Shown here: positions 18,229-49,600 of the stretch, piece by piece
Layout: each line of letters opens with the position of its first letter
How positions within the stretch are numbered: the first letter of the stretch is position 1
Source: a virus
DNA: 64,000 bases
Virus record (IMG/VR): IMGVR_UViG_3300027751_001020
Coordinates: 26,067-90,066 of that record
Direction: 5' to 3' (one strand)
Program-made: the position numbers and the translations under genes
The notes under the pieces: generated by a model
What the model saw: the letters and a program-made list of their open reading frames with translations, nothing else
Told to the model about the DNA's origin: nothing
The model's database searches: none

Positions 18229-18240
18229 GTAATTAATTAG

Positions 18241-18267
18241 TATGCAGGTACTTAATGTGCCTGCATA
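18241..18267. terminator. 11-bp hairpin at the boundary between the structural operon and the glycan island
   Basis: TATGCAGGTAC-TTAAT-GTGCCTGCATA (one G-U pair), AT-rich flanks. Confidence 0.6.
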
Positions 18268-18285
18268 TATTTAAATTAATAAGTT

Positions 18286-19140
18286 TTGAAAGTAGTTTGG
18301 GTTTTAGAAAATATAGAAAAGAATAAGAACTTTTATAGTAAATTTAATATACTATTAATGCTCACATCAACTATCCTTTGGAAGAGAAATCATCCAGAGG
18401 ATATTTGTATTTTATATGCTGATGACATTACTATAGATTTTTTAGATAAATTAAAAGTATTAGAAATATGGGACCAGGTAAAACCTATCCCAAAAAGCGG
18501 AAGAATAAATAAATCAATATTCTGGGCTTCCTCTAAATTACAGGTTCTATCAGAAATAGAAGATCCTATTATCTTAATGGATAATGATACACATGTATAT
18601 AAACCAATAAAGGGTTTTCTAGACTTGAATAAGGTATACGTAACTAATTTAGAAATAGGAAAAGGGTACTACCCTACCTCCATAGACCCATATATACGTA
18701 AACTATCATATAAAAACAGATGGAAAACTGAATCTGTTAATGTTTCCTTTCTAAATTTACCTGACTCAGATTTTACTAGAAGGTACGCTAATGAGAGCCT
18801 TAAAATGATGGAAGAATTTACAGAAATGAAAGCCACTAACTCTCAATATTTAATTTTTGCAGAACAGCTTTTATTAAAACATATGCTTGATAAAGAGAAT
18901 GTAGCGTATAGAAGTATACTATCTACATATTGGGATTGTGCAAAATGGAATTGGGGTGAAATTCACAATAAGGGTATATGGAGCATAGAAGAATCAGAAA
19001 GGTACTTTAAACATTACGGACCGTTAAAAGGATGGTATATCAATAACAAGGACGGCCATGATTATGAGGAACATATTAAACACCTTTTAAACTGTATAAT
19101 GATACCTAATCTAGATTTAAAACTATTTAGCAAAAGATAA
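18286..19140 (+). CDS. Putative GT-A fold nucleotide-sugar transferase (DUF6734-like), TTG start
   Basis: IFWASSKL...IILMDND (DxD motif). Confidence 0.55.
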   Translation: MKVVWVLENIEKNKNFYSKFNILLMLTSTILWKRNHPEDICILYADDITIDFLDKLKVLEIWDQVKPIPKSGRINKSIFWASSKLQVLSEIEDPIILMDNDTHVYKPIKGFLDLNKVYVTNLEIGKGYYPTSIDPYIRKLSYKNRWKTESVNVSFLNLPDSDFTRRYANESLKMMEEFTEMKATNSQYLIFAEQLLLKHMLDKENVAYRSILSTYWDCAKWNWGEIHNKGIWSIEESERYFKHYGPLKGWYINNKDGHDYEEHIKHLLNCIMIPNLDLKLFSKR

Positions 19141-19144
19141 AAAA

Positions 19145-19918
19145 ATGTCTATAATTAATAATGAATTTGTAAGAACTCATATTACAAATAACAAAGTTAC
19201 AAAACAGGACGAAGACGGAAAAGAAACTTTAACTTTTACCCCAGTCCCCTTCAGGTGGACACACGGAGCAACCGAAAATCATTTAGGAGACGGATTACTA
19301 ATCTACACTATCATACAATTAATGAGGTATAAATCTGTAGTATGTTTAGGTTCCGGAGGCGGGTTTATTCCTCGCATTATGACCCAAGCTCGGTTAGATT
19401 TACATAAGCAAGGTATATTTGAAGGGAGTGATAGTTATAATTGGGGAGACATCGGTGCAACATATCTTGTTGATGCAGCTAACGGAGTAGGCGGTACACC
19501 GGACTATTTAGAAGATGATTCGTACTTTAGGTATCAATTTGCTCCTCGGTTTATAAAAGAAACTACAAAGGACGCATATTATAATTTTTTTGTTAAGCAA
19601 GATATAAAGATAGATTTTTTACATATCGATGCAGGACACTCTTACGCAGATGTCAAGCAAGATTTTGAATTATACTCTAAGTTACTATCATCTAATGGTA
19701 TGATAGCTATTCACGACACAGATGAGAAGTTTCAAAAAGAACTAATAATAACAGAAGACGAAAAACAACATTACGACTTATTTGATGGCCCACCTAAGTT
19801 TATAAAAGAAATTGGACCGGAATGGAAGCAGTTTAACTTTTTTAATACTGGGCAGGAAATAAATAAACCTTCTTCAACCGGTATTACATTACTTCAACGA
19901 GCAAAATGCCTAATCTAG
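19145..19918 (+). CDS. Class I SAM-dependent methyltransferase (Methyltransf_24-like)
   Basis: CLGSGGG and IDFLHIDAGHSYADVKQDF...GMIAIHD motifs. Confidence 0.85.
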   Translation: MSIINNEFVRTHITNNKVTKQDEDGKETLTFTPVPFRWTHGATENHLGDGLLIYTIIQLMRYKSVVCLGSGGGFIPRIMTQARLDLHKQGIFEGSDSYNWGDIGATYLVDAANGVGGTPDYLEDDSYFRYQFAPRFIKETTKDAYYNFFVKQDIKIDFLHIDAGHSYADVKQDFELYSKLLSSNGMIAIHDTDEKFQKELIITEDEKQHYDLFDGPPKFIKEIGPEWKQFNFFNTGQEINKPSSTGITLLQRAKCLI

Positions 19919-20745
19919 TTACAGTAGTTGGAGAGAATACACATATCTTACCTCATATGCTAAAACACTATGAAGATAAGGTAGATAAAGTATATGTAGT
20001 TGTATATAGACAATCCGATAGAGATGATATTTTAGAAAAGGTAGAGGATTTAGGAATCACACCATATAAAGTTGTAACCGAACCAAAATATAATTGGAAT
20101 AAAGTTACAGATTTATATAACGAAACTAAAAGAACCAAACCAAATGATTGGTGGATAGTATCAGATGATGATGAATTACAAATATACCCTGAACCGATCG
20201 AAGATATAATAGAGACATGTGAGAGAAACGATTATGACTTTGTCACAGGAGGTTTCTTGGATAGAATAGGTATAGATGGCACTTTTCCAATAGTGGACAG
20301 AGACACAAATCTACACAAAGCATTTCCTTTGGCTGGATTTTTTAGGTATCCAATGTCTGGGGCATGCCCAAACAAAGTAACTTTAATGAAAGGTTATCAA
20401 GATGTTACACCCGGACAGCACTACGCTCAATTTAAAGACGGTTCAAACAGTTGGGGGAAATCTCATCCAAAAAGAATGCCAATAGAAGAGGTATTTACCC
20501 AAGTACACCACTTTAAATGGGATTCTACATGTATTAGTAGAATTAAAAAAGTAGCAAACACTAATATGATGTATGCGTATTCTCAAGAATATAAGATAAT
20601 GTACGATGCAATTAAAGCTACAGAAGATAAAATAGATATAAAGAATAGTGAATATTTAGTTGAGAAACTAAAAGAAAGTTCATATATTGAATATATGGAT
20701 TATTCTAATTGGAATACCTTAATTAAAAAAATAGTTACAATATGA
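19906..20745 (+). CDS. Glycosyltransferase family 2-like (Glyco_tranf_2_4 type)
   Basis: ILPHMLKHY and WWIVSDDDEL motifs. Confidence 0.75.
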   Translation: MPNLVTVVGENTHILPHMLKHYEDKVDKVYVVVYRQSDRDDILEKVEDLGITPYKVVTEPKYNWNKVTDLYNETKRTKPNDWWIVSDDDELQIYPEPIEDIIETCERNDYDFVTGGFLDRIGIDGTFPIVDRDTNLHKAFPLAGFFRYPMSGACPNKVTLMKGYQDVTPGQHYAQFKDGSNSWGKSHPKRMPIEEVFTQVHHFKWDSTCISRIKKVANTNMMYAYSQEYKIMYDAIKATEDKIDIKNSEYLVEKLKESSYIEYMDYSNWNTLIKKIVTI

Positions 20746-20930
20746 GCACAAAAAAAGTGGAGACAAGTTTAGAAGAACGTCAAACTAAGGCGTTAGAAAC
20801 CATTGCAAGTTCATTAGATGCGCTAAGTTTATGGTTCGAAGAAATCGATAAAGACGAATGGGGAGAAAGAATTCAATACTATCTTTCTGAATTTCACGAA
20901 ATATTCGATCTGAGAAAAGAAAATGAGTAA
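20742..20930 (+). CDS. Small acidic helical hypothetical protein
   Basis: Overlap-coupled on both sides. Confidence 0.55.
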   Translation: MSTKKVETSLEERQTKALETIASSLDALSLWFEEIDKDEWGERIQYYLSEFHEIFDLRKENE

Positions 20931-22227
20931 ACTTGGAATTATAGTTCCATATAGGAATAGATATCAACATCTTGAAGCTTGGACTAGAGAAGTAAAACAT
21001 TATCTAGACAATCAAGGTATAAACTATAATATTATTGTAGTTGAACAAGACGATGCTACATCCTTTAATCGAGGAATGTTATGTAATATAGGATTTATAC
21101 ATGCTATAAAAAGAGGATGTACTTATGTTGTGTTTCATGATGTTGATATGGTTCCAGTTACAGTGGACTATACTCCAAATGATACTCCAATTCATTTATT
21201 TGATGACCAATTGCCTTTTGATAGCTATTTCGGAGGTATGACAATGTTTCCGGTTGAAGATTTTAAAAAAATAAACGGATTCTCTAATATGTACTGGGGC
21301 TGGGGATATGAAGATGACGATTTAAGGTACAGATGTGCTTTACATAATATAGATTTTGGCACACCTTATAAAACCTCAGAAGGAATTAGTAGAGACACCG
21401 CTATATTTAACGGTAAAAACTCAATCGCACGTATTCCCAATAACTTAAAATTTAGTACGGATTTTACTATAGAGATTTCTGGAAGGCTTGACCATGTAGA
21501 AATGGATCCAAAAAAAGTATTTGATCAGTACACTTTATTAAGTATAAGAGGAAATGAATTAAACATTACCTACAATTCTTTTAACAGATTCTCAGTGCAG
21601 CTTTTTGATAAAAGTTTTGATAAGTACACTATTAATTCAGATGTCTTTATTAACAGTGAATTTAATGTAAAACTACAATATGTAGCACGAACTAAAACAG
21701 TATCGTTATATGTAAACGATTCTTTAGAAGCTTCTACCACACTTAAAAACAGAATACTTGACTATAGTAAGCAATCGACAATTATTGTAGGAGCAGATTC
21801 AGAAGACACTAACCACTATCACGGTGCTATAGACAGTATAACACTATATACGAGAAAAGATGAAGTAGTTAACAGGTACTTAAAACCTAATAAAATAAAA
21901 TATATATGGGTTGACCATATAAGAAGAGATAAAGGAACATTAGATAATGTAGATGTAGCTCCATATGATGCACCTGAATCTACCGAAATAGACAGCACAG
22001 TACCTTATAGAAGAAAAGGAGACATATACAAACTTCCCCACCCGGATAACGGGTACGTAGAAGGAAGATGGAGAAGTGATTTAACTAGATGGAATCAATT
22101 AAGATATAATAACGAAGTAAAAAGAGGAGTTTATAATAACTCTAAAGACGGACTAAAAGACTGTGAATATATTCTACATAGTAAACAGTTTAAAGATAAA
22201 GTTTTACATTTAAATATAGGCATATAA
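20923..22227 (+). CDS. GT7 (beta-1,4-galactosyltransferase-like) with an inserted LamG/ConA domain
   Basis: VPYRNR, FNRGMLCNIG, FHDVD, YFGG, NGFSNMYWGWGYEDDDL; LamG-like segment FNGKNS...IVGAD...YHGAIDSI. Confidence 0.85.
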   Translation: MSKLGIIVPYRNRYQHLEAWTREVKHYLDNQGINYNIIVVEQDDATSFNRGMLCNIGFIHAIKRGCTYVVFHDVDMVPVTVDYTPNDTPIHLFDDQLPFDSYFGGMTMFPVEDFKKINGFSNMYWGWGYEDDDLRYRCALHNIDFGTPYKTSEGISRDTAIFNGKNSIARIPNNLKFSTDFTIEISGRLDHVEMDPKKVFDQYTLLSIRGNELNITYNSFNRFSVQLFDKSFDKYTINSDVFINSEFNVKLQYVARTKTVSLYVNDSLEASTTLKNRILDYSKQSTIIVGADSEDTNHYHGAIDSITLYTRKDEVVNRYLKPNKIKYIWVDHIRRDKGTLDNVDVAPYDAPESTEIDSTVPYRRKGDIYKLPHPDNGYVEGRWRSDLTRWNQLRYNNEVKRGVYNNSKDGLKDCEYILHSKQFKDKVLHLNIGI

Positions 22228-23639
22228 TGAAACATAAATTAGGAGTATGTGTACCATACAGAAACAGAGAAGAACACTTACACACCTTTATACCAAGAGT
22301 TGGGAGGTTTCTTAAAGAAAGAAATATAGATTTTCAAATTTATATATGCCATCAAGTAGACGAAAAACTTTTTAATAGAGGTGCAACTAAAAACATAGCT
22401 GCAAAACACGCTATTGAAGACGGATGTGACTACGTCGTTTTCCATGATATAGACATGATACCAGAAGACGGCGCAGATTATTCGTACCCTACAGAAGGTC
22501 CTCGCCATATTGCAACTCAAATTTCACAAATGGACTATCAATTAAAGTATCATGAGTACTTTGGAGGTGCAGTCTTATTTACTAAAGAACATTTAGAAGC
22601 CACAAACGGTTACTCTAACGGATATTGGGATTGGGGAATGGAAGATGATGATCTTTTTTGGAGATGTCACGAAGAAGGTTTAACATTAGATACATACTTA
22701 CAGAAAAAGACTAAACAAAAATACCTACGATATAATGGAGACAGTTCTTATAGTAAAGTTCCATTTACTAGAAAACTTAGAGGGTTAACTTCAAAATCAC
22801 ATACAATCTCAATACTGTGTCGAGCTTTTCAACAGCCAAATAAAAATAAAATTTTCTTAATAGGAGATAAGGATAATAAATACGTTGAGTACCCTATTCT
22901 AAGAATACCGGGGTATGACTACGGATTATCATTTAATAACTCAAGAGCACTTTCTCTCACATACTGGGATATGTTTAGTAACCACCACTACATGTGGGTG
23001 AAAAGATACGATAACCAATGGAGCTGGGTAACTGCGGTATTTAATGAAGAAACAAGAACCAGCCACTTATACCTAAACGGTACAGAAGTTGATTCCAAAG
23101 GAGGGTACGGAAGCCCTTCTCCCCTTAACTGGACCGGTAAATTAAAAAAATACGGCCCTAACGGAATATACATAGGCACTACACCATCTGTACCAGAAGA
23201 TAGTGGATACAGATACTTTAAAGGAGATATAGCAAAAGTGTTTGCTTGGGATAGAAACTTAACACCAGAAGAAGTCCAAGACTTACATTTAGATATTCCT
23301 ACCGATGGATTAGTGATTGACTCAGATTTTAACAGTCCCAATACCGAAATAGAAAGCTTCAATGTAGAATTAAGAGAGGAAGAGATAGACATTCCAAATT
23401 CAATTTTACCCTATAGAAAAGAAGGTAGATTTACATGTTTACCCCATATTGATGAAGGATTAGTAGACGGCAAATGGGCAAAAGGAGATACTACAGCAGC
23501 AAACGAAGAACGGTACGTTTTACAAATGCAACAAGGTAAGATCAATTATAAAGAAGATGGAATTACTACCTTAGAGTATACAGTAGAAAACGAAAACATT
23601 CTTACACCGTGGGCTAAAATGATTAATATAAAACTATGA
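22227..23639 (+). CDS. Second GT7 with an inserted LamG/ConA domain
   Basis: VPYRNR, FNRGA, FHDID, YFGG, NGYSNGYWDWGMEDDDL; LamG segment HLYLNG...YIG...FKGDIAKV..WDRNLT.EEV. Confidence 0.87.
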   Translation: MKHKLGVCVPYRNREEHLHTFIPRVGRFLKERNIDFQIYICHQVDEKLFNRGATKNIAAKHAIEDGCDYVVFHDIDMIPEDGADYSYPTEGPRHIATQISQMDYQLKYHEYFGGAVLFTKEHLEATNGYSNGYWDWGMEDDDLFWRCHEEGLTLDTYLQKKTKQKYLRYNGDSSYSKVPFTRKLRGLTSKSHTISILCRAFQQPNKNKIFLIGDKDNKYVEYPILRIPGYDYGLSFNNSRALSLTYWDMFSNHHYMWVKRYDNQWSWVTAVFNEETRTSHLYLNGTEVDSKGGYGSPSPLNWTGKLKKYGPNGIYIGTTPSVPEDSGYRYFKGDIAKVFAWDRNLTPEEVQDLHLDIPTDGLVIDSDFNSPNTEIESFNVELREEEIDIPNSILPYRKEGRFTCLPHIDEGLVDGKWAKGDTTAANEERYVLQMQQGKINYKEDGITTLEYTVENENILTPWAKMINIKL

Positions 23640-25033
23640 AACTACAGCAAGTAAAGGAAAAGTTAGATAAAGTAGGTTGTGGTTTTTGTTTAGCAAAATG
23701 GACCCAAGTTACTATACACTTAGGTCTTGGAATGACACACTCCTGTCACCATCCCTCTCCACATAAGATTTCACTAAAAGAGATTAAAAGAAATCCTTCT
23801 GCATTACATAATACGTCTTATAAAAAACAAAAACGTAAAGAGATGTTAGAAGGAAAAAGACCTCAAGAATGTAACTACTGTTGGAACGTAGAAGATAATT
23901 CTAACTCATTTTCAGATAGAACATTTAAATCTTCAGAACCTTGGTCATTAGACCAATACGATAAGATTGTGGAGTCACATTGGAGATCTGATTTTAACCC
24001 AAGGTATGTTGAAGTGTCGTTCTCTAATACATGTAATTTTAAATGTGCATATTGCGGACCACAGTATTCTTCAAAATGGGTAGAAGAAATAGAAAAAGAA
24101 GGGCCTTATCCAACCACTTATAACTTTAATGATATATCAAATTTAAAAGCTAAGGGAGAAATGCCTTATAAACATTCGGAAGAAAACCCATATGTAGAGG
24201 CATTTTGGAAATGGTGGCCAGATTTATTTAAAGATTTACATACCTTCAGAATTACAGGAGGGGAACCTCTTTTATCAAAAGATACATTTAAAGTATTAGA
24301 GTATATTCAAAAACATCATGATAAAAACTCCCAACTATCTTTATCCATTAACACAAATTTAGGGGTACCAGATGCACTAATTGATAAATTTATCGATATA
24401 GCTAAAGATTTATGTGAAAACGATAAAGTAAGAGAATTAACTTTATTTACATCTATTGAAGCAAAAGGAGCTCAAGCAGAATACACAAGATATGGATTAG
24501 ATTCAGAAAAATTTTGGTCTAATGTAGATAAAATTTTAACTGCCCTCCCAAAAGTAACCATTAACATTATGGCTACCTTTAACGCCCTGTCTGTCTTTAC
24601 ATATGATGAGGTAATAGATAGAACATTTGAGCTTAAAAAGAAACACGCTAATGGACAGAGATATTGGATATCTGCTTTACAGTTAGATACATCTTATCTG
24701 AGGTGGCCAGCTCATTTATCTGTAAAGATATTAGAACCAGACCACCATGAATTAATTTTGAAGTCTGCAGAAAAAATGCTATATTACGGTATAAAGGAGT
24801 TTACTACCGATAATTATGGATTCTCTAACGTAGAGATACAAAAAATGAAAAGAATCTACGATTATGCAACCGGTACGGATAGCTTTGAAACACATAAGTA
24901 CAGGACTGATTTTGTTAAATTTGTAGATGAATTAGATAAAAGAAGAGGTACCGATTTTAATAAAACATTTCCTGAATTAAATAACCTATATGATAGATAT
25001 AAGAAAAGGCTCGCCTTGGGTATTTTGGCCTAG
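23636..25033 (+). CDS. Radical SAM enzyme with N-terminal Twitch domain (#1, SCHH type)
   Basis: CLAKW...SCHH...CNYCW, then CNFKCAYC and ITGGEP. Confidence 0.9.
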   Translation: MKLQQVKEKLDKVGCGFCLAKWTQVTIHLGLGMTHSCHHPSPHKISLKEIKRNPSALHNTSYKKQKRKEMLEGKRPQECNYCWNVEDNSNSFSDRTFKSSEPWSLDQYDKIVESHWRSDFNPRYVEVSFSNTCNFKCAYCGPQYSSKWVEEIEKEGPYPTTYNFNDISNLKAKGEMPYKHSEENPYVEAFWKWWPDLFKDLHTFRITGGEPLLSKDTFKVLEYIQKHHDKNSQLSLSINTNLGVPDALIDKFIDIAKDLCENDKVRELTLFTSIEAKGAQAEYTRYGLDSEKFWSNVDKILTALPKVTINIMATFNALSVFTYDEVIDRTFELKKKHANGQRYWISALQLDTSYLRWPAHLSVKILEPDHHELILKSAEKMLYYGIKEFTTDNYGFSNVEIQKMKRIYDYATGTDSFETHKYRTDFVKFVDELDKRRGTDFNKTFPELNNLYDRYKKRLALGILA

Positions 25034-25574
25034 TAGCATATGTGATACATTTCCTGATAAACCTGCAAACAAGATACTATCTGGGCAACATTACTTTCAC
25101 CTTACCTTCAGACTTACATTAAAGGATAAATCAGACGATCAAAAAACCTTATTCACAATAGTACCGAGGTATACTGGTCTAGATTTATATAAGGATAAGA
25201 TGATACTCACAGTAACTTGCGAAGACGGTCCTATATATGTAGACTTACCTTTACTGGTTAACTATAACGAAGAGGTAATTATTTCATTAGAACACACTCC
25301 TAAAGGTAATTTTAGATTATTTATAGATAATAAGGTTGTCCACGAAGTAGATTTAAAGGACAAAATTTTTGGATTAGCAGATAGCCCGCACATATTAATA
25401 GGAGCAGGAAATTTTCCAAAGAATGATTTTAATTTAAACTATACAGATTTTGATCTACATGAGTTTATATTGAAAGATGAGAACGAAATTATATCTCATC
25501 ACAAATTTGAACAATTTATTTTTGATAAATCGGTAGATATTACCGGTAAATGTAATTTTATACACAAGTTATAA
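24990..25574 (+). CDS. Stand-alone LamG/ConA-like domain protein
   Basis: FRLFIDNK...ILIGAG...DLHEFIL beta-sandwich pattern. Confidence 0.5.
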   Translation: MIDIRKGSPWVFWPSSICDTFPDKPANKILSGQHYFHLTFRLTLKDKSDDQKTLFTIVPRYTGLDLYKDKMILTVTCEDGPIYVDLPLLVNYNEEVIISLEHTPKGNFRLFIDNKVVHEVDLKDKIFGLADSPHILIGAGNFPKNDFNLNYTDFDLHEFILKDENEIISHHKFEQFIFDKSVDITGKCNFIHKL

Positions 25575-27196
25575 TGGCAGGAGTTTTTGCAAAAAGAGAC
25601 GACGAAACGTTTCAGGAATACAGAGATAGAGTAGTAAACAAATTATCCGGCTCATTTTGTGGAGCTAAATGGTATAATGCAACAATCTGGTTAGGAAACG
25701 GAACTACCGCTTCCTGTCATCACCCACCTGCACATAAAATACCTCTAGAGGAAGTAGCTAAATCTTATAAAGCTATTCATAATACTACCTATAAAAAAGC
25801 AGTAAGAAAACAAATGATGGACGGAGTTCGTCCTAAAGAATGTGAATACTGCTGGAAGATAGAAGACTTAGGAGCAGATAAAGTATCAGATAGGGTTTAT
25901 AAATCTGTTATATATACAGACGAAGAACTCAAAGATGCTAAAGAGAAATTTGGAGCAGGCTTTGACGTTGATCTCAAGACATTAGAGATTGCTTTTGATG
26001 CTAACTGTAACTTTGGATGTTCATATTGTAATGCTTCTTTTTCTACTACTTGGCAAAAAGACATTAAGATGTTCGGACCTTACCAGAATCTAGTATCCGA
26101 TGGTGCAGGAGCATTTCAACATGATGGTAAACATGCAATGCCGTATGGTAGAAAAAATAAAGATAATCCATATGTTGAAGCTTTCTGGAAGTGGTGGGAA
26201 GCAGAGCTGCAGTACACCTTAAGAGAATTAAGAGTAACTGGAGGGGAACCTTCAATGTCGCCTGATTTTTGGAAGCTAATGGATTGGTGGAAAGATCATC
26301 CTGAATGTGAGGTACCTTTTGCTGTAAACTCTAACTTAGGACAGAAGACACAGCTACTTGATGCTTTAATTGATTCAACTCATAACTTCAAAGATTTTAG
26401 TATATATACGTCTAATGAGGCAACAGGGTTACAAGCAGAGTATATTAGATACGGATTAGAATGGGATGTATGGTTAAAGAATATTTACAGAGTTAATAGA
26501 GAAGCAAAAGTATCCTCTGTTAACGTTATGATGACTATTAATGCATTATGCTTATTCTCCATTACAGAATTTATGGATGAAATGTTAAAACTAAAAAAAG
26601 AGTTTGGACATCATGCCGCGGTAATGTCATTTAACATATTAAGATTTCCTTCTTTCCAGTCTATTGTCACACTTCCTGTTAACGTAAGGATGGAAAGAGC
26701 TGCACACATTGAAAAGTGGTTAGAAGCTAATTGGAATGGAGGCTCAAATGGTTTTATGGATATGGAAAGAGACGGGGTACTTAGACTTATTGAATATATT
26801 AAACAAGTAGATTCAGGACACGCTCATACCTCTTCATTAGAGTCTAGAGAAAGAGATTTTAAATCTTTTTACACTCAATATGATAAGAGAAGAAAGAAAG
26901 ATTTCTTAACTGCCTTTCCAATGTTAAAAGAATGGTGGGACAGTATTCCAGAAACAAATATCGAACTACTAAAAGGAGTTAGAGACGGAGACGATGCTAA
27001 ATCTAACAGGTATGTTCACGAAGTACTGAAAAAAGCAAAAGATGAAGGATGGGTACTGAACCCACAGTGGGCTAATCCTGGATCACAAGAGTATGTAGAA
27101 CCAGACGATCAACAACAAGATGATATGATTGACTTAGTTGAACAACTAAAAAAAGATTCAGATTCTAAATTTGTTGGAGGAGTAGCTAAAAGGTAA
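25574..27196 (+). CDS. Radical SAM enzyme with N-terminal Twitch domain (#2, SCHH type)
   Basis: CGAKW...SCHH...CEYCW, CNFGCSYC, VTGGEP. Confidence 0.9.
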   Translation: MAGVFAKRDDETFQEYRDRVVNKLSGSFCGAKWYNATIWLGNGTTASCHHPPAHKIPLEEVAKSYKAIHNTTYKKAVRKQMMDGVRPKECEYCWKIEDLGADKVSDRVYKSVIYTDEELKDAKEKFGAGFDVDLKTLEIAFDANCNFGCSYCNASFSTTWQKDIKMFGPYQNLVSDGAGAFQHDGKHAMPYGRKNKDNPYVEAFWKWWEAELQYTLRELRVTGGEPSMSPDFWKLMDWWKDHPECEVPFAVNSNLGQKTQLLDALIDSTHNFKDFSIYTSNEATGLQAEYIRYGLEWDVWLKNIYRVNREAKVSSVNVMMTINALCLFSITEFMDEMLKLKKEFGHHAAVMSFNILRFPSFQSIVTLPVNVRMERAAHIEKWLEANWNGGSNGFMDMERDGVLRLIEYIKQVDSGHAHTSSLESRERDFKSFYTQYDKRRKKDFLTAFPMLKEWWDSIPETNIELLKGVRDGDDAKSNRYVHEVLKKAKDEGWVLNPQWANPGSQEYVEPDDQQQDDMIDLVEQLKKDSDSKFVGGVAKR

Positions 27197-27198
27197 GC

Positions 27199-28536
27199 AT
27201 GAAAATTAAACCAGAAGAAGGTAATAAGACGTTTTGTATAGCACCATGGACACACACCTACCTCTCTCCTCAGAGTGAGAGGAGGATGTGCTGTGCATCT
27301 AGGGAAAAAGCTTCCTGGGCAACACAGTATTTAGACTCAGATGCAGCAGACGGAACTTCTTCTTATAAACCCGGTACTCTCAAAGAACATTGGAACTCTG
27401 AATATATGAAAGGAGTGAGACGAGACCTTATGGCAGGTAAGGTTATACCTCAATGTTCGGTATGTAATGAACAACTACTAAATATATCTGTTTATAGAGA
27501 TTATTTTAATAAATCTTTATTCCCTAATAAAATTGAGGAAGCATTTAGTAAAACAGATGAAACAGGCTTTACAACTATGCCTCCTATATCTTTTGATTAC
27601 AGGGTAAGAAACCTTTGTAATTTTAAATGCAGAATGTGCGGAGATCAACTTTCATCTTCATGGGAAGCAGAGAGAAGAGCAATGGGCGATTACGATAGAG
27701 AAGGAAATGGTGACCATTGGGCTAAAAAAGAAAATAAACCAGTTATTGAAAACTTTCAAAAAGATGTAGCAGAAGCTGAACTTTGGGAAGCTGTGAAGAA
27801 TGGTACTATAGAGGAAATATACTGGGTAGGAGGAGAACCTTTAATGTGGGAAGTACACTGGGAAGTAATGGAATATTTAGTTAATAATGATTTAGCTAAA
27901 AACGTATGGGTGCGTTACAATACTAATTTTAGTAGAACGACTTATAAACACTGGGACCTAAAAAACCTACTTCCCCACTTTAAAATGGTTCAAATCTGTG
28001 CTTCCATAGACGGAACTGGAAAAAATGTTGAATACGTAAGACATGGTATTAAGTGGGATCAATGGATACATAATTTTAAAGAATATTTATTTCTTAATCA
28101 AAAATATGGACAATACGGTATTGCATTTGACCTTACTATAACCACCCCAGGTCTTTTCAGCCTAAAGAGTTTATTTGATTTAGCAGTTGAACTAGATGTC
28201 AACACCCTGATTAAAACAACATTTGCATTTGACGGGAGTGTTACTATGTGTCCCCAAGTACTACCTAGAGAACTCTTTAACGAAGTTATTGATGATATAT
28301 TAGACTACATAAGACCTAAAGTAGAAGTAAACCCAAAACATGCTAATTGGATAGAATGTCTTGAAGATTTAAAAAACAGAGAGACATTTGAAGAAAAGTA
28401 CCCTGATTGGAAGGAGGCCTTAGTTAGAGGTAAACAAAATTTGACTAGAGTAGATAAGTGGAGAAAAAACGAAAATACTCTAGAAGAAATCTATTCGGAA
28501 AACCCTAAAGTATTAAACTGGTGGAGAAACATATAG
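27199..28536 (+). CDS. Radical SAM enzyme with N-terminal Twitch domain (#3, CC type)
   Basis: CIAPW...MCC...CSVC, CNFKCRMC, WVGGEP. Confidence 0.9.
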   Translation: MKIKPEEGNKTFCIAPWTHTYLSPQSERRMCCASREKASWATQYLDSDAADGTSSYKPGTLKEHWNSEYMKGVRRDLMAGKVIPQCSVCNEQLLNISVYRDYFNKSLFPNKIEEAFSKTDETGFTTMPPISFDYRVRNLCNFKCRMCGDQLSSSWEAERRAMGDYDREGNGDHWAKKENKPVIENFQKDVAEAELWEAVKNGTIEEIYWVGGEPLMWEVHWEVMEYLVNNDLAKNVWVRYNTNFSRTTYKHWDLKNLLPHFKMVQICASIDGTGKNVEYVRHGIKWDQWIHNFKEYLFLNQKYGQYGIAFDLTITTPGLFSLKSLFDLAVELDVNTLIKTTFAFDGSVTMCPQVLPRELFNEVIDDILDYIRPKVEVNPKHANWIECLEDLKNRETFEEKYPDWKEALVRGKQNLTRVDKWRKNENTLEEIYSENPKVLNWWRNI

Positions 28537-29744
28537 AAAGTAGTAAAAAGAGTAAGTCTATATGTGCACTACCGTGGCTACATTTAGCTACACATCCTAT
28601 AGGTACTATTACACCTTGCTGTATTACCGATATGAAAGATAGTGCTTCTACAGCAGCTACAGATCATGATGAAGCTCAGCACTTATTTCTTAGCAAAGAT
28701 TCGCTTGATTCAATAGCTAATTCAAAAAAGTTTAAAAAGCTACGTAAAGACATGATGAACGGAGAATTCTCCTCTTTATGTCAGAAATGTTACAAATACG
28801 AAGCTGCAGGTGTAGAATCTAAAAGGGAAGTTTCTAATAGGGAGTATGGGAAATACTTAGAAGAGTATATAAAAAACACTGATTCTACAGGACACATAAA
28901 AGATATAAATTATAGATACATAGAACTAAGACTAGGCTCAGTATGCAACTTGAAATGTGTCACATGTAACCCTTTTTCTTCAAACAGGTGGAACCAAGAT
29001 ATACATGTGTTTAAGGGTACTGAGTTTGAAAAAGAATATTTTAAAAACGAGATAAAAACAGAGTGGTATAGAGATTACGGATTTTACGATAACCTTCTCG
29101 ATAAGTGTAAGGACTTACAGGAAATTTGGATAAATGGAGGAGAGCCTACCTTAATTAAAGAACATGGGTACTTCTTACAAAAGCTTATAGATAATAACCA
29201 AGCAAAGGATATTAAAATTAGTTACAGTTTAAACAGTACAAAATTCCCGGACAGTTTTTTAGAGATATGGAAAAAATTTAAAAAGGTAAAGATACAAATC
29301 TCCATAGATGATATTGAAGATAGAAACCACTATGTACGATATCCATCAGACTGGAATACAATAATGACTGCTTTTACAAAAATTGCTAAATATAAAGATG
29401 TATTTGAGTTAGAGATATGCCAGACTGTTAGTGCTTTAAATGTTCATAATTTAAGTAACTTTAAAAACTTTTTTAAAGAATTCGGATTACTTTTTTCTCA
29501 CAACTACGTACATTATCCATCTCATTTACAGGTTTCGATCTTACCAGAAGAATTAAAACAACAGGTTTTAGAAAATAATTCAGATTTAACAGAGATGGAA
29601 ATAGATAGACTAAAATCTGAACTATATAAATCAGCTAGTCCAAAAGAATTAGATAAATTTAAATCCTATATTAATTTACTTGATAGAGCAAGAAATTTAA
29701 AAATACAAAATTACCTACCTGAGTGGGAACCTTATTTTAAATAA
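28521..29744 (+). CDS. Radical SAM enzyme with N-terminal Twitch domain (#4, CC type), GTG start
   Basis: CALPW...PCC...CQKC, CNLKCVTC, INGGEP. Confidence 0.9.
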   Translation: MEKHIESSKKSKSICALPWLHLATHPIGTITPCCITDMKDSASTAATDHDEAQHLFLSKDSLDSIANSKKFKKLRKDMMNGEFSSLCQKCYKYEAAGVESKREVSNREYGKYLEEYIKNTDSTGHIKDINYRYIELRLGSVCNLKCVTCNPFSSNRWNQDIHVFKGTEFEKEYFKNEIKTEWYRDYGFYDNLLDKCKDLQEIWINGGEPTLIKEHGYFLQKLIDNNQAKDIKISYSLNSTKFPDSFLEIWKKFKKVKIQISIDDIEDRNHYVRYPSDWNTIMTAFTKIAKYKDVFELEICQTVSALNVHNLSNFKNFFKEFGLLFSHNYVHYPSHLQVSILPEELKQQVLENNSDLTEMEIDRLKSELYKSASPKELDKFKSYINLLDRARNLKIQNYLPEWEPYFK

Positions 29745-29750
29745 AGAATT

Positions 29751-31013
29751 ATGAAAGACAGTAAAACATTATGCACAGCTCCGTGGATGCACTTACACAT
29801 AATTAACGATGGAAGAGCATATCCTTGCTGTATGACTGAAATTACTAACGAATTAGCAGTAGGTAATGTTAAAACTCAGACACTAAAGGAAGTAGTAAAC
29901 AGCCCTAAGATGAAAGAAATGAGAAAGGGAATGCTTGAAGGTAAACCTCTCCCAGCTTCCTGTGAAAGATGTAAAGGAAGGGAAGATGCTGGATTTAGTT
30001 CAATGAGAATAGGCATGAACAATAATTGGTACGATAAAGTAAAAGACCTAATAGAAAATACAAAACCAGACGGAGAAGTAACAAATTTAAGACTTCTATA
30101 TTGGGACATAAGATTTTCTAACTACTGTAATCTAGCTTGTAGAACCTGTTCTCCTACATTTTCAACTTCTTGGGCAAATGATTATATAAGATTAAGAGAC
30201 CATAATGATAATATTGAAACCGGTCTAATAAATTTAGATAATGAAACTAATTTCTGGAATGAGTTAGATGCCAATCTAGATGTAGCCCAAGAGATACACT
30301 TCGCCGGAGGAGAGCCCGTATTAATGCCGGAACATTGGAAGCTTATTAGCTTCTTAGAAGAGAACCAGAGGTTTGATACAAAATTAAAATATTCCACCAA
30401 TGCTACAAAATTAGTAGTTAAAGGTAGAAATATTATTGATGTATGGAAAAAATTTAAAAATGTACATTTAAGTCTATCTATAGACGGAACAGGCGATGTA
30501 TTCGAACTTACAAGACATAAAGGCAATTGGGAATCTACTAGAAATAATTTAATTGAGATTTCTAATAGCAATATAGAGTACTGGATACATCCTACCGTTA
30601 GTATATTAAACATTTTTAATATAGTAGAACTACATAAAGAGCTATTTGATTTAAATATTATTCCAAATGAAATAAGAGAATGTGAAGTAGGAAAATCCGG
30701 ATATAATAGTAATGATTACTTTATTAAAAGATTTCACATCAACCCTTGTGTGACCCCAGATATTTATTCAATAACCAATATACCTGAAAATCTAAAAGCA
30801 ATAGCTACACAGAAAATTAGAGAATACGCCAATACAAGTCTAAAAGAAAACGGGATACCGGTATCGGGTTGGGAATCGTTAATTAGTATTATGAATAGCC
30901 AACCATGTGATATGGAAGTATTCAGGAGATTTGTAGAGACTACTAAGAAATTAGACAAAATGAGAAATCAAAATTTTGTTGAAACGGTTCCTGAATTTAA
31001 ACCTTATTTTTAA
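29751..31013 (+). CDS. Radical SAM enzyme with N-terminal Twitch domain (#5, CC type)
   Basis: CTAPW...PCC...CERC, CNLACRTC, FAGGEP. Confidence 0.9.
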   Translation: MKDSKTLCTAPWMHLHIINDGRAYPCCMTEITNELAVGNVKTQTLKEVVNSPKMKEMRKGMLEGKPLPASCERCKGREDAGFSSMRIGMNNNWYDKVKDLIENTKPDGEVTNLRLLYWDIRFSNYCNLACRTCSPTFSTSWANDYIRLRDHNDNIETGLINLDNETNFWNELDANLDVAQEIHFAGGEPVLMPEHWKLISFLEENQRFDTKLKYSTNATKLVVKGRNIIDVWKKFKNVHLSLSIDGTGDVFELTRHKGNWESTRNNLIEISNSNIEYWIHPTVSILNIFNIVELHKELFDLNIIPNEIRECEVGKSGYNSNDYFIKRFHINPCVTPDIYSITNIPENLKAIATQKIREYANTSLKENGIPVSGWESLISIMNSQPCDMEVFRRFVETTKKLDKMRNQNFVETVPEFKPYF

Positions 31014-31014
31014 T

Positions 31015-31953
31015 ATGCACTACCTTTACGACTACTTATGGGAATCTCCAACTGAATTTGGAGTTAGAAATCTTTTAAGAAGAAACCACCTAGCTTATTA
31101 CACAGATGAAATAATAAAAAACTGTAATAAAACAGACCCAGGAGAGGTGTACAGTGTAAGGTACTTAGATGAGGAAGAAGAGGCTGAAACCCTTGCAGCT
31201 ATTAGTAAAAATACAACAGACCTAAAAGAAGGAGATGTATGTTATAACCTTGACCGTTTTGGACTAAGACATACAGGGGTGAACATACTTGAAGATGAAG
31301 TCGATACTTTAGTATTTGGATGTTCTTTTACATACGGAGTAGGAGTGCCATTGGAAAAAACATGGGCCTATAGTGTTAACACCCAAATTTTAGACAACCG
31401 ATACATTAACCTAGCTATACCGGGAAGCTCAATTTCTAAAATTACAAGACTTTTATATAGTATAGCTCAATTTAAAAAGCCAAAAAGAATTATTATACTG
31501 CTACCGGATTACAACCGGGAAGAAATAATTACCGAAAAAGATAGTAACGCAAGTAAAAAAGTACGTAATAATTTTGAAACTATAAATTTTGTCCCTAGGT
31601 ATCTACCTGAAAACCAAGAGGTAATGTACCATATTAAGAGGTACATGAACACACTAGTTACGGAAAATAACAAAGTCAATACATACAAAAATCTACAAAT
31701 TATTAAGTTTCTCACAGACCAGCTGAACATAAAGTTATACATCTCCAGCTGGTGCCCTTGGACTTACTCAACTTTAGAAAAAGTATTTGACACAACTCAA
31801 ATAGCACCATATTTTGAATTTAAAAATGATGCAAAAGATAACCTATATGCTAGAGATGGAGGACATCCAGGTTTGGTAGATAATAAAGAGTTTGCGAACG
31901 ACTTACTAAAGTTTATAACTAATAAAGAAAAGGTACACCACAATGTCATTTAA
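31015..31953 (+). CDS. SGNH-fold protein (possible O-acyl esterase/transferase); start revised to ATG 31015
   Basis: FGCSFT block I, NLAIPGSS block II, C-terminal DGGHP block V. Confidence 0.7.
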   Translation: MHYLYDYLWESPTEFGVRNLLRRNHLAYYTDEIIKNCNKTDPGEVYSVRYLDEEEEAETLAAISKNTTDLKEGDVCYNLDRFGLRHTGVNILEDEVDTLVFGCSFTYGVGVPLEKTWAYSVNTQILDNRYINLAIPGSSISKITRLLYSIAQFKKPKRIIILLPDYNREEIITEKDSNASKKVRNNFETINFVPRYLPENQEVMYHIKRYMNTLVTENNKVNTYKNLQIIKFLTDQLNIKLYISSWCPWTYSTLEKVFDTTQIAPYFEFKNDAKDNLYARDGGHPGLVDNKEFANDLLKFITNKEKVHHNVI

Positions 31954-33247
31954 TCATTACTTAGAAATAAACTATAACCAAGCTATAAATTTCGGTTTTG
32001 ATAAATTAAATACTAAACCAGACATCGGGTTTGTACACGGTAGTCCGATACTTGAAACTCTAGTCTTTAAAGAAAGCACATCGTACTTTATAGAAACTGG
32101 TAAAAAATTTATATACCCAATCTCAGGATTAAGTGAAACTATGTATATCTCTCCTGCTTTTTTATTAGAAAGCAATGTTATTGAAGCATGCAAGAATGGC
32201 CTGTGTAAAGTAGGTATAATGTACGATACAGAAGGAACAACATATCAGGACCGGTACCTTTTTTGGCTAGAAGAATTTGCAGAGTTAAATGAATTAGATG
32301 AAACTAACTTTTTTTTCGCACATGGGAATAGACAGTTAATACAAACCTATAGAGATTTTTTAATAAAGAAAAGAGAATTAAATCCTACGTTAGAAGTAAA
32401 ACCTAAAGTTGAGATTTTAAAATACTCTTATTTTGAAAATTTTCCTTGGTTTATTCCCGGTGATTATAAATTAAGAAAATCAAAAACTAAAGAGCAATTA
32501 TTAGAGCACTTCAATAAAATATTAACCAGGAACAGGGAAGAACAAAAAGTAAAGCATTTTTTATGTTTGAACAGAAGACCGAGACTAGGTAGAGTATTAA
32601 TATTTGGAGCTATTGAAACTAACCCTTATTTAAGAGATAAGACTATACTAACAATGGGTCCTCATGAACTTCCTGAGGGAACAGAGTTTCGACCGTTAAA
32701 AGCAATAGAAAGGAAATATATCCCATCTTGGATATATGATTATGTAGACTCATACGACTTTGAAAAACCCATACATGTAATAGATAATCCAGATAATAGT
32801 AATAAAGCACATGATATAAATCTTGAGTTTCACCAAAGTACATTTTTAAACGTTGTTACAGAAACACTATACAATAAAGAGATAATGTTTCTTTCGGAAA
32901 AAATATTTAAACCAATGTATATGCTACAACCTTTTGTAGTGATTGGAAATCCTAATACTTTAAAAGAACTTAAGCAACTTGGGTATAAAACTTTTGATAG
33001 ATGGTGGGATGAAAGTTACGATGAAGAAGAGGACTTGGTACAAAGAGTGTTAAAAGTAGAAATAATTTTAAATAAACTAAGTAAGTTAAGCTTTGAAGAA
33101 CTCTACAAAATTACTCAAGAAATGGAAGAAACATTAATACATAACTTTAACAGATTTCTATTTGAAAGTAAACAAGAAACATTAGATTATTTAAATTTTC
33201 TAACTTTTCAACAATATTTTGAAAAACTACCTCCATATCAATATTAA
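31943..33247 (+). CDS. Putative GT-B glycosyltransferase, distantly GT10-like
   Basis: FLCLNRRPR...FLNVVTETLY..FLSEKIFKP...PFVVIG...LKQLGYKTF. Confidence 0.5.
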   Translation: MSFNHYLEINYNQAINFGFDKLNTKPDIGFVHGSPILETLVFKESTSYFIETGKKFIYPISGLSETMYISPAFLLESNVIEACKNGLCKVGIMYDTEGTTYQDRYLFWLEEFAELNELDETNFFFAHGNRQLIQTYRDFLIKKRELNPTLEVKPKVEILKYSYFENFPWFIPGDYKLRKSKTKEQLLEHFNKILTRNREEQKVKHFLCLNRRPRLGRVLIFGAIETNPYLRDKTILTMGPHELPEGTEFRPLKAIERKYIPSWIYDYVDSYDFEKPIHVIDNPDNSNKAHDINLEFHQSTFLNVVTETLYNKEIMFLSEKIFKPMYMLQPFVVIGNPNTLKELKQLGYKTFDRWWDESYDEEEDLVQRVLKVEIILNKLSKLSFEELYKITQEMEETLIHNFNRFLFESKQETLDYLNFLTFQQYFEKLPPYQY

Positions 33248-34077
33248 TGAAAAGCAACCTTATAACCTTTGGATGTAGTTATACTAAATTTGATTGGCCA
33301 ACTTGGGCAGATTTTCTTAGTTCATATTACAGCACATATACAAATTATGGAAAAGCAGGATCAGGAAACAGAGCGATTTTTCATAAAATTATTAAATACC
33401 TAGATTCAAAAGAAAATTTTACACAAGATCAAGTTATAATTCAGTGGAGCAGCTGCGCTAGAGAAGACAAATACGATAAACATTCTAACCAGGAATATCT
33501 TTGCGCAGGAAATATTACTAATAATCCTTTCTATACCAAAGAATATGTAGATAAGTACTTTTCATTTCAACAAGACTTAGTAGAAACGGTAAATTACATA
33601 AAAACGGTAAAAGACCTACTTGAATATCATAACATTAAGTACTTAATGACTTTTATGTTAGATTTAAGGATAGGCACACATTTAGGAGAGCCGGGATTCA
33701 ACAGTAACTTTGAATACTTAACTGAGATAGAGTTAAATAAATGTAAACCTATATTTAAAAAACTTGACTATTTAGTTGATAATAATTTTACCGATTTATG
33801 TATTACTATGCACCAATTAGACTGCAGTGATAAAGTATACTGCTTCTCCCCTAAAGGAGAGGTAAACCCAGACTCTCACCCTAGTCCAAATCAGCATTAC
33901 AGTTTCATGGAGAAGTATTTACTCCCTAAACTAAAATACATACAGCAGAAAGAAACCCCGGTATCTATCAGTCTATTAAAAGACTGGAATAATTTTGCTA
34001 AAATTAAAAAAAATTTAGAAGATAAGTTAGAGTATAAACCTTCAACCTGGCCTACTAAAACTACAATGAACTTTTAA
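33247..34077 (+). CDS. Second SGNH-fold protein
   Basis: FGCSYT, NYGKAGSGN, PDSHP motifs. Confidence 0.68.
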   Translation: MKSNLITFGCSYTKFDWPTWADFLSSYYSTYTNYGKAGSGNRAIFHKIIKYLDSKENFTQDQVIIQWSSCAREDKYDKHSNQEYLCAGNITNNPFYTKEYVDKYFSFQQDLVETVNYIKTVKDLLEYHNIKYLMTFMLDLRIGTHLGEPGFNSNFEYLTEIELNKCKPIFKKLDYLVDNNFTDLCITMHQLDCSDKVYCFSPKGEVNPDSHPSPNQHYSFMEKYLLPKLKYIQQKETPVSISLLKDWNNFAKIKKNLEDKLEYKPSTWPTKTTMNF

Positions 34078-34111: not shown

Positions 34112-35275
34112 ATGAAAATAGGCTTTATAGGAGTTGGAAAACTCGGAAAAGATGCTGCCGAAGTAATGGCAGAAAAACACGACGTTATAGGTTACGATGT
34201 AACAAAAGTTGAACCGGAAAACTTTAATATGGTAGAAACCATAGGAGAAGTTTGTAAAGGTAGAGAAATGATATTTATAGCGGTTCCAACACCTCACGAT
34301 CCTGCCTATGATGGTAGGTATCCAACAGCACATTTACCAAACAAAGACTTTAACTACCAGATTGTAAAAGACGTACTTACTGAAACAAACAAGTATGTTA
34401 CAAAAGATCAATTAGTAGTTTTAATCTCAACTGTACTACCAGGAACAATTAGAAGAGAGTTTATAGATTTAATTCCTAACGGAAGATTTATCTACAATCC
34501 TTATTTAATTGCAATGGGTACAGTTAAATGGGATATGGTTAATCCTGAGATGGTTATTATTGGAACTGAAGACGGTTCAATGACCGGAGATGCTAAGATG
34601 TTACTCGATTTTTACAAAACGTTTATCACAGAAGGTACACGGTATGAAGTAGGAACTTGGGATGAAGCAGAAGGTATTAAAATATTTTACAATACATTTA
34701 TTTCTACAAAAGTAACTTTAGTTAACATGATACAAGATGTTGCCGAAAAAGGAGGTAATATGAATGTAGACGTAGTAACAGGAGCATTAGAAAGATCCAC
34801 ATACCGTATACTCGGTAAAGCTTATATGACAGCAGGTATGGGAGATGGAGGAGGATGCCACCCAAGGGACAATATCGCCTTACGTCATATGGCAGAAAAG
34901 TTAGGTTTAGGGTATGATTTATTTGATGCAATAATGAATGCTAGAGAGAAACAAGCTAAAAATCTTGCAGAGACTTTAGTTAAACACGCTCAAGAAAATT
35001 CCCTACCTATAACAATACTCGGTAAATCTTATAAACCGGATGTACACTACGAAGACGGTTCTACAACTATACTAACAGGTTATTTCTGTGAAGAATTAGG
35101 AATAAAACCTGAATTTGATTTAGAAGTTCCAAATAAGGCAGTTTATTTATTAGGACATATGGGTAAATTTCATGAATACCGGTTTCCTGAAGGCTCTATA
35201 GTTATCGATCCATGGAGAGCATATAAATCAGATAAAGTTAAAGTAATACATTACGGAAACACCCGACTGGGATGA
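34112..35275 (+). CDS. ugd: UDP-glucose/GDP-mannose dehydrogenase family enzyme
   Basis: GFIGVGKLG, FIAVPTP, STVLPGT, YNPY, GGGCHPRD (catalytic Cys), LGKSYKP. Confidence 0.88.
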   Translation: MKIGFIGVGKLGKDAAEVMAEKHDVIGYDVTKVEPENFNMVETIGEVCKGREMIFIAVPTPHDPAYDGRYPTAHLPNKDFNYQIVKDVLTETNKYVTKDQLVVLISTVLPGTIRREFIDLIPNGRFIYNPYLIAMGTVKWDMVNPEMVIIGTEDGSMTGDAKMLLDFYKTFITEGTRYEVGTWDEAEGIKIFYNTFISTKVTLVNMIQDVAEKGGNMNVDVVTGALERSTYRILGKAYMTAGMGDGGGCHPRDNIALRHMAEKLGLGYDLFDAIMNAREKQAKNLAETLVKHAQENSLPITILGKSYKPDVHYEDGSTTILTGYFCEELGIKPEFDLEVPNKAVYLLGHMGKFHEYRFPEGSIVIDPWRAYKSDKVKVIHYGNTRLG

Positions 35276-49599: not shown

Positions 49600-49600
49600 T

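Follow-up and report, generated by a model that had tools for sequence, protein, structure and literature searches.

Why does a phage carry, between its tail-fibre genes and its tail sheath gene, five radical S-adenosylmethionine (SAM) genes whose products have an inverted domain order, and on what might these enzymes act? The question is raised by positions 26,067 to 90,066 of the IMG/VR virus record IMGVR_UViG_3300027751_001020. This stretch of 64,000 nucleotides is referred to as the window, and coordinates without a prefix count from its first letter. It belongs to a 104-kb viral contig with a CheckV completeness of 63%. Its genes for a tail sheath, a tail tube, a baseplate and a lysozyme identify this uncultured phage as a myovirus. 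The five radical SAM genes are the following, with the types A and B defined further below (aa, amino acids).

23636-25033, + strand: radical SAM 1, type A, clade A1; 465 aa; NF033640 score 341.8 bits; motifs CxAKW, SCHHP and CNYCW, core CNFKCAYC
25574-27196, + strand: radical SAM 2, type A, clade A2; 540 aa; NF033640 score 312.5 bits; acidic C-terminal tail of ~85 aa
27199-28536, + strand: radical SAM 3, type B; 445 aa; NF033640 score 312.8 bits; own clade of nine rows, support 100
28521-29744, + strand: radical SAM 4, type B, own clade; 407 aa, GTG start; NF033640 score 346.2 bits
29751-31013, + strand: radical SAM 5, type B; 420 aa; NF033640 score 370.9 bits

A permuted, Twitch-like radical SAM family

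An earlier note on this DNA (the original prediction) had proposed that the five proteins are radical SAM enzymes with an N-terminal Twitch domain, and had suggested a profile search for the corresponding NCBIfam family, NF033640 (N_Twi_rSAM). This is a large family of unusual, permuted domain order, curated at NCBI without an assigned function to date. In the search all five proteins scored 312-371 bits, far above the curated cut-off of 170 bits; the matches run nearly end to end (from model positions 1-4 to 388-398), and a repeat scan of the genome gave the same result. The assignment of the five genes to a known orphan family is thereby confirmed. In an alignment of the five proteins C18, W22, C37, C79 and C82 (numbering of radical SAM 1) are invariant, the N-terminal Cys following the pattern C ... 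C ... CxxC with a spacing of 19/42-44/3. The core motif C133-x3-C137-x2-C140, together with the SAM-binding GGEP motif, is likewise invariant and lies downstream of this Cys set in all five, as in NF033640 itself, so that the claimed permutation of the domain order holds for each enzyme. The general Pfam model Radical_SAM (PF04055, cut-off 29.5 bits) scores the five at 27.3-35.2 bits and thus straddles its threshold. The Pfam SPASM model matches ahead of Radical_SAM in radical SAM 5 (residues 8-75, E 5.5e-15) and radical SAM 4 (residues 15-91, E 1.4e-6), stays below threshold in radical SAM 3 and gives no match in radical SAM 1 and 2.

The N-terminal domain of each enzyme, ~95 aa with the four invariant Cys, is homologous to the SPASM/Twitch domain; the part C-terminal to the core is helical. 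A full SPASM domain would contain 7-8 Cys including CX2CX5CX3C. Here, four (type A) or five (type B) conserved N-terminal Cys are found, and neither CX5CX3C nor any further Cys follows CxxC in the N-terminal domains of the five, which argues for a Twitch-like domain with one auxiliary cluster instead of a full SPASM domain. The four N-terminal Cys probably ligate one auxiliary [4Fe-4S] cluster. The Twitch prototype is BtrN, 2-deoxy-scyllo-inosamine dehydrogenase, whose substrate is a sugar-like cyclitol. BtrN resembles the five enzymes in its single auxiliary-cluster domain with four Cys in the order C ... C ... CxxC and in a similar Cys spacing, but carries this domain at the C-terminal instead of the N-terminal end. 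BtrN gave no sequence match in the searches run and is not among the listed fold matches.

To place the fold, an AlphaFold model of radical SAM 5 was built from 30 sequences (predicted local distance difference test, pLDDT, 91.7; predicted template modelling score 0.89). At its N-terminal end the model has a beta-hairpin with helices, after which come a beta/alpha core and, over the last third, further helices; the hairpin, made of strands 14-17 and 22-24 and followed by helices, lies between the first two Cys. Global Foldseek alignments of the model have a high root-mean-square deviation, as expected for a permuted protein. In an order-dependent structural search only residues ~114-386 align, the best matches being anSMEcpe (Z 12.9), BlsE (12.8), CteB (12.6), SkfB (12.1) and MoaA (11.4), with GDGT-MAS also present (Z 10.5). 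The modelled core thus belongs nearest the SPASM/Twitch branch. The N-terminal domain of radical SAM 5, in turn, aligns by sequence with anSME residues 267-321 via YPC and CxxC, the E-value being weak for a single sequence. Compared to the five enzymes, anSMEcpe, which acts on Cys/Ser of proteins, has the reverse domain order: its 7-8 Cys and two auxiliary clusters follow the core, and the CX5CX3C part is missing from the phage enzymes. BlsE, the second-best match, is the radical SAM decarboxylase of cytosylglucuronic acid in the blasticidin S pathway (PMC3715490; PDB 7VOB). Its substrate is thus a glucuronic-acid derivative; it differs from radical SAM 5 in its usual domain order, in an identity of only ~16% and in its role in an antibiotic pathway of Streptomyces. 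A predicted complex of radical SAM 1 and 2, modelled for the idea of a heterodimer, scored 0.00, which is evidence neither way.

The searchable literature on NF033640 and on N-terminal Twitch or SPASM radical SAM enzymes yielded no naming paper and no characterised member. The sole trace found comes from a paper on pelagimyophages (PMC7029224), which mentions 'radical SAM cassettes' in their host-recognition clusters.

Two further open reading frames (ORFs) touch on this family. The original prediction had contrasted the five enzymes with a gene at 49601 of usual domain order, and ORF 49553-50452 (+) indeed has Radical_SAM at residues 47-146 and SPASM at 213-281. In NCBIfam it is closest, though only at a weak 50.9 bits, to a model of the tungsten-cofactor maturase type, and it lies in a replication/nucleotide region away from the radical SAM genes. 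About 0.5 kb past the end of the window, a sixth, divergent N_Twi-like ORF (G000:C1:90594-91619, +; 363-aa frame) reaches 64.5 bits on NF033640, i.e. less than the cut-off.

Two subtypes and a recurring cassette

The relationship of the five enzymes to each other was analysed in a tree and alignment of 146 members of the N_Twi_rSAM family, across which the pattern of four Cys followed by the core is kept. Radical SAM 1 and 2 fall into one clade of ~30 rows (support 100). Every member of this clade, here called type A, has C-x-A-K-W, S-C-[HY]-H-P, C-x-Y-C-W and the core CN[FL]xC[SA]YC, whereas all remaining members including radical SAM 3 to 5 (type B) have CxxPW, x-C-C-x, CxxC[YFW] and mostly CNxxCRxC. 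The two subtypes that had been noticed as SCHH and CxYCW in radical SAM 1 and 2 versus CC in radical SAM 3 to 5 are hence seen in the five-protein alignment and hold throughout the family; by sequence, the A/B split is real and family-wide. The interpretation attached to it, His versus Cys ligation of the auxiliary cluster, found no support. Both types keep all four N-terminal Cys without exception; where type B has its extra Cys, type A has Ser, and the [HY]-H pair typical of type A sits in other columns, at +1/+2 of the invariant Cys. The alignment therefore offers no reason to assume His ligation, possible as it is.

The tree places each of the five genes in a well-supported clade of its own, together with orthologues from other phage contigs and from metagenome-assembled genomes (MAGs). 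Radical SAM 1 and 2 are 83% and 85% identical to their counterparts in the related phage L001 and only 36% identical to each other. A recent tandem duplication of the five genes is ruled out by the tree with its five separate deep clades. The earlier description as five diverged paralogues should be amended: in view of the tree and of the gene counts in viral loci, the genes represent five ancient orthogroups that are passed on together. Likewise, the genes are tandem insofar as all five lie on the same strand, but the run is broken by a 194-aa ORF (24990-25574) between radical SAM 1 and 2.

Relatives of the locus were searched with a seed alignment centred on radical SAM 5. In IMG/VR at least 593 matching stretches were found, and the counts given here refer to the best 80 loci. 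Typically, a viral locus carries 5-7 radical SAM genes, usually in the order A-A-B-B-B that the window also shows; in 59 of the 80 loci the number of type A genes is exactly two, and three is the commonest number of type B genes (36 of 80). A related 109-kb contig has the whole surrounding region in synteny with four radical SAM genes, and contigs of 439-524 kb have an A-A-B trio. The A-A-B-B-B phage cassette is therefore a widespread, previously undescribed organisation of a known orphan family, which recurs in many uncultured phages, from T4-like ones up to contigs of ~0.5 Mb. Both the A/B split and this cassette are new to the family.

Clustering of the neighbouring genes yields a canonical module. 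Its 5' part consists of the fibre-like c7, the Gly/Ser/Thr-rich c8, c10, two glycosyltransferase family 8 (GT8)-like genes, n10 and c4; the radical SAM genes are followed by c14, a DUF6071/SGNH-like gene, a carbamoyltransferase (PF02543), an APS-kinase-like gene (PF01583) and c9. At a distance of up to 9 kb, 74 of the 80 loci have a glycosyltransferase (GT)-like gene, and 59 have two or more kinds: the GT2-like c4 occurs in 64 loci, GT8-like genes in 49 and the GT-B-like c9 also in 49. SGNH-like genes and c14 were each found in 55 loci, the carbamoyltransferase in 36, the APS-kinase-like gene in 13 and an epimerase/dehydratase of the short-chain dehydrogenase/reductase (SDR) type in 7. In many loci the cassette lies downstream of fibre-like genes, c7 being present in 22/80 and c8 in 36/80. 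The GT8-like proteins have a partial profile match to glycogenin (E 3e-5), and c4 shows a DxD-like VDGDN motif, its own Atlas cluster being automatically named GT2-like. Profiles of c4, c9 and c14 found no match among PDB sequences, nor did the partner genes in PHROGs. No peptide-maturase gene was recognised in the neighbour clusters of the 80 loci. According to the original prediction, a sugar-related role would be refuted if genes for peptide precursors or cofactor pathways prevailed around the radical SAM genes; the 80 viral neighbourhoods are instead dominated by sugar-related genes, mostly GT-like, SGNH-like, carbamoyltransferase and sugar-nucleotide genes. In phages, the NF033640 enzymes thus travel as a fixed five-enzyme set amid sugar-handling genes next to tail-fibre genes, which makes the orphan family a defined experimental target.

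Two variants among these loci are worth recording. The c14 protein (e.g. L119:12904-13971), absent from the window and encoded 3' of the radical SAM genes, has ~355 aa and no family match; it may have a metal site, to judge from the invariant His and Glu in NH..MN.LH.HFE and LCHE.E. In L092:4625-6724 (+; IMG/VR 3300028384_000937) a type B N_Twi radical SAM shares one 699-aa ORF with an SGNH-like domain; that domain, here at residues 495-691, is elsewhere encoded by a separate downstream gene, so this is either a true fusion or an assembly frameshift.

The surrounding island and the possible substrate

In the window the radical SAM genes are part of an accessory island of 17.6 kb, bounded on one side by the tail-fibre genes and on the other by the tail sheath gene, in which, apart from the radical SAM genes, every identifiable gene is sugar-handling. 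The island genes abut or overlap, an arrangement that is operon-like. Besides the five genes listed above, it comprises the following features.

18240-18268, + strand: terminator-like hairpin with 12-bp stem just 5' of the first island gene; pattern match only
18286-19140, + strand: DUF6734 protein, first island gene (Pfam PF20508, E 9.9e-10); syntenic in L001
19145-19918, + strand: methyltransferase, Methyltransf_24 (Pfam PF13578, E 8.2e-11)
19906-20745, + strand: GT2-like glycosyltransferase, weak (Pfam PF13704, E 2.5e-5, 25.1 bits at a cut-off of 27.5)
20923-22227, + strand: GT7 (beta4-GalT-like) glycosyltransferase with LamG (Pfam Glyco_transf_7N, 7C, Laminin_G_3)
22227-23639, + strand: second GT7-LamG glycosyltransferase (Pfam Glyco_transf_7N, 7C, Laminin_G_3)
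24990-25574, + strand: 194-aa ORF, probably a stand-alone LamG/ConA-like protein (Atlas neighbours mostly Laminin_G_3, score 0.95-0.97)
30976-31953, + strand: SGNH/GDSL-like protein (GCSFT ... DxxHP), directly 3' of radical SAM 5
31943-33247, + strand: GT-B-fold glycosyltransferase-like protein, c9 (AlphaFold pLDDT 83; top Foldseek PDB matches all GT-B)
33247-34077, + strand: second SGNH-like/DUF6071-like protein (hhalign to the family following the radical SAM genes, probability 96.3; cluster DUF6071 E 1.8e-10)
34112-35275, + strand: UDP-glucose/GDP-mannose dehydrogenase (Pfam PF00984, PF03721)
35272-35916, + strand: 214-aa protein without family match, last sizeable gene 5' of the tail sheath; syntenic in L001 and L088

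The sugar context that had been described as glycosyltransferases and a lectin gene interleaved with the radical SAM genes is borne out for the glycosyltransferases, while the lectin gene is only probable: its LamG/ConA-like character derives from language-model features. This 194-aa ORF has no Pfam or NCBIfam match and, by BLASTP, no significant similarity to the LamG regions of the two GT7 glycosyltransferases; it is conserved in L001-L003, L085 and L088. The SGNH-like gene 3' of radical SAM 5 probably starts at ATG 31015, the Atlas copy of the protein beginning at residue 14. Its product has invariant G-C-S-x-T and H-P blocks, matches GDSL esterases of the PDB by profile (E 3.8e-4) and is homologous to DUF6071 proteins and to the membrane-anchored c16 proteins encoded beside radical SAM trios in Bacteroidota. 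For the c9 model of the window, the best PDB match has an E-value of 9e-5 at a template modelling (TM) score of ~0.4. Between the dehydrogenase gene and the tail sheath two small ORFs are located. The total of terminator-like sites is not above shuffled expectation, and a promoter scan likewise gave nothing above chance.

We propose that the five genes form a complete, horizontally mobile A-A-B-B-B cassette whose enzymes tailor the sugars of a glycan built by the island, a reading supported by the context and to which we would give slightly less than an even chance. In this scheme each enzyme would cleave SAM to yield the 5'-deoxyadenosyl radical, which would abstract a hydrogen atom from a sugar residue, either in a nucleotide-sugar or in the glycan assembled by the island glycosyltransferases. 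By analogy with BtrN or anSME, the auxiliary cluster would take up the electron, and oxidation, epimerisation, decarboxylation or deoxygenation could result. As the enzymes fall into five distinct orthogroups, they may catalyse five different steps or act at five different positions. The SGNH-like enzymes, the methyltransferase and, in other phages, the carbamoyltransferase could add further decoration. Since BlsE acts on a glucuronic-acid nucleoside and the island dehydrogenase could supply UDP-glucuronic acid, a step directed at glucuronic acid is one concrete guess. The carrier of the glycan would most likely be a virion component such as the tail fibre, because the cassette sits among fibre genes in a structural operon; the alternative is a glycan of the host envelope, the target proposed for pelagimyophage islands (PMC7029224). 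That virions can be glycosylated is known from mycobacteriophages (Freeman et al. 2023, PMC10527164, cited in PMC12619734). The systems of the mycobacteriophage and pelagimyophage reports (PMC10527164, PMC7029224) resemble the present case in that phage glycosyltransferases lie beside fibre and structural genes; beyond the remark cited above, these reports describe neither radical SAM chemistry nor a conserved set of five enzymes. If the proposal is correct, radical SAM chemistry extends to glycoconjugate tailoring, and a common, so far unrecognised decoration of phage surfaces would be relevant to host recognition in aquatic systems. A bolder version, which we regard as possible but doubtful, is that the cassette is the first radical SAM machinery to act on a virion-protein-attached glycan or its polymer precursor, installing on tail fibres radical-derived features needed for adsorption, for example keto sugars or epimerised, decarboxylated or C-C-linked ones. 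An orphan family with at least 593 viral loci and many bacterial members would then gain a function.

Several points weigh against glycan tailoring. The support for it is genomic context, i.e. guilt by association, and the glycosyltransferase calls are themselves partly weak (c4 by a DxD-like motif and an automatic name, c9 at TM ~0.4, the GT8-like proteins by a partial profile match). SPASM/Twitch enzymes mostly act on peptides or proteins, and we know of no radical SAM enzyme that acts on a protein-linked glycan or a polysaccharide. Four peptide or protein maturases are among the nearest solved structures. Around the bacterial homologues (140 genes within two positions of radical SAM genes in 44 loci) the neighbours are mixed: GT2 is commonest with only 8 genes, followed by PhoX with 5 and WelO5, UbiA, PhyH and GDSL with 3 each, and an ABC transporter component is found as well. 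The failure to recognise a precursor peptide, finally, covers only ORFs of at least 80 aa.

The structural neighbours anSMEcpe, CteB, SkfB and SuiB and the alignment of the N-terminal domain with anSME 267-321 suggest instead that the five enzymes are protein maturases, which would modify side chains or the backbone of a virion protein (for example the adjacent fibre or a c8-type protein). Their chemistry would be like that of anSME (formylglycine), of sactisynthases or of peptide epimerases, and the same protein would independently be a substrate of the glycosyltransferases. The position of the cassette next to the fibre-like c7, c8 and c10 in many phages, within a late structural operon, would fit as well. 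Yet neither Pfam nor NCBIfam finds a PqqD-like RRE domain in the five proteins, and no precursor, peptidase or exporter gene was recognised among ORFs of at least 80 aa. Families related to ribosomally synthesised and post-translationally modified peptides are absent from the 140 bacterial neighbours and from the viral neighbour clusters, the bacterial array loci lack fibre genes, and in the viral loci the fibre-like neighbours are less constant than the GT-like ones. We hence consider maturases unlikely. A product that is neither a polymer nor a protein glycan but a diffusible, aminoglycoside-like pseudo-oligosaccharide or a polyprenyl- or lipid-linked compound, is called to mind by BtrN and BlsE, both enzymes of antibiotic pathways, by the carbamoyltransferase of the NodU/CmcH (TobZ-like) family with the kinase-like and SDR genes, by GDGT-MAS among the fold matches and by Bacteroidota loci that pair three radical SAM genes with UbiA, PhyH, WelO5 and an ABC ATPase. 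However, the phage loci lack UbiA, PhyH and WelO5, a position between fibre and sheath in a structural operon would be odd for a secreted product, and neither the island nor the viral loci revealed an enzyme that would form a scaffold, e.g. a cyclitol synthase, which makes a small molecule or lipid-linked metabolite quite improbable in our view. It is very improbable that the island places tailored glycans on the phage's own bases to evade restriction. Phage glycosyltransferases do add glycans to DNA (Pyle et al. 2024, cited in PMC12619734), and ThyA and dihydrofolate reductase genes lie close to the module in two jumbo phages; but the cassette is consistently found in the fibre/structural region and not with nucleotide-metabolism or replication genes, and the island contains no hydroxymethylase or base-modifying gene.

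Phage and bacterial relatives

The backbone of the source phage has a cultured relative. The nearest one is Flavobacterium phage immuto (L165, MW353175.1 127026-160410), whose tail sheath shares 66.8% identity with the one encoded here and which has the same order of fibre ... sheath-tube-baseplate genes. The interval between fibre and sheath of immuto contains only small genes and a lysozyme, with neither a glycan nor a radical SAM island, and immuto is absent from the matches of the radical SAM protein search of cultured phages. The island is thus accessory cargo in a host-recognition region. The host is probably a member of the Bacteroidota. An assignment to the pelagimyophages, suggested by PMC7029224, was dropped in view of the sheath identity; unlike in those phages, the backbone here is Immutovirus-like. 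Among cultured phages, the DNA of the region gave one weak match only (Ralstonia phage RsoM2USA), and the protein search matched only three Vibrio phages and, again, RsoM2USA.

Bacterial genes of ~30% identity come from Bacteroidota, Bdellovibrionota, Elusimicrobiota and Verrucomicrobiota as well as from one isolate each of Synechococcus and Paenibacillus; here, too, the radical SAM genes often form arrays of 3-9. One Bacteroidota cluster, present also on a complete Crocinitomicaceae chromosome (L011, L021, L028, L040, L074, L075), encodes three distinct N_Twi radical SAM enzymes together with a membrane-anchored SGNH-like protein, several PhyH dioxygenases, a WelO5-like halogenase/hydroxylase, UbiA prenyltransferases and an ABC ATPase, and resembles an undescribed tailoring pathway. 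In L022, L031, L039, L046 and L068 (Bdellovibrionota and one Flavobacteriaceae MAG) a gene for a PhoX alkaline phosphatase is followed directly by 3-6 N_Twi radical SAM genes. Within the Elusimicrobia MAG MJ-2014_bin-0981, over 13 contigs gave radical SAM matches (L015, L020, L025, L026, L029, L034, L036, L050, L052, L054); many of these matches are stop-free ORFs of 700-1100 aa that resemble fused tandem radical SAM domains, flanked by small ORFs on the opposite strand (c2). The full phage module (c7, c8, c10, GT8-like, c4, radical SAM genes) is also seen on the MAG contigs L013, L017, L018, L037, L051, L060, L062 and L065, which are probably phage DNA binned into Legionellales, Haliscomenobacter, Rickettsiales and other MAGs.

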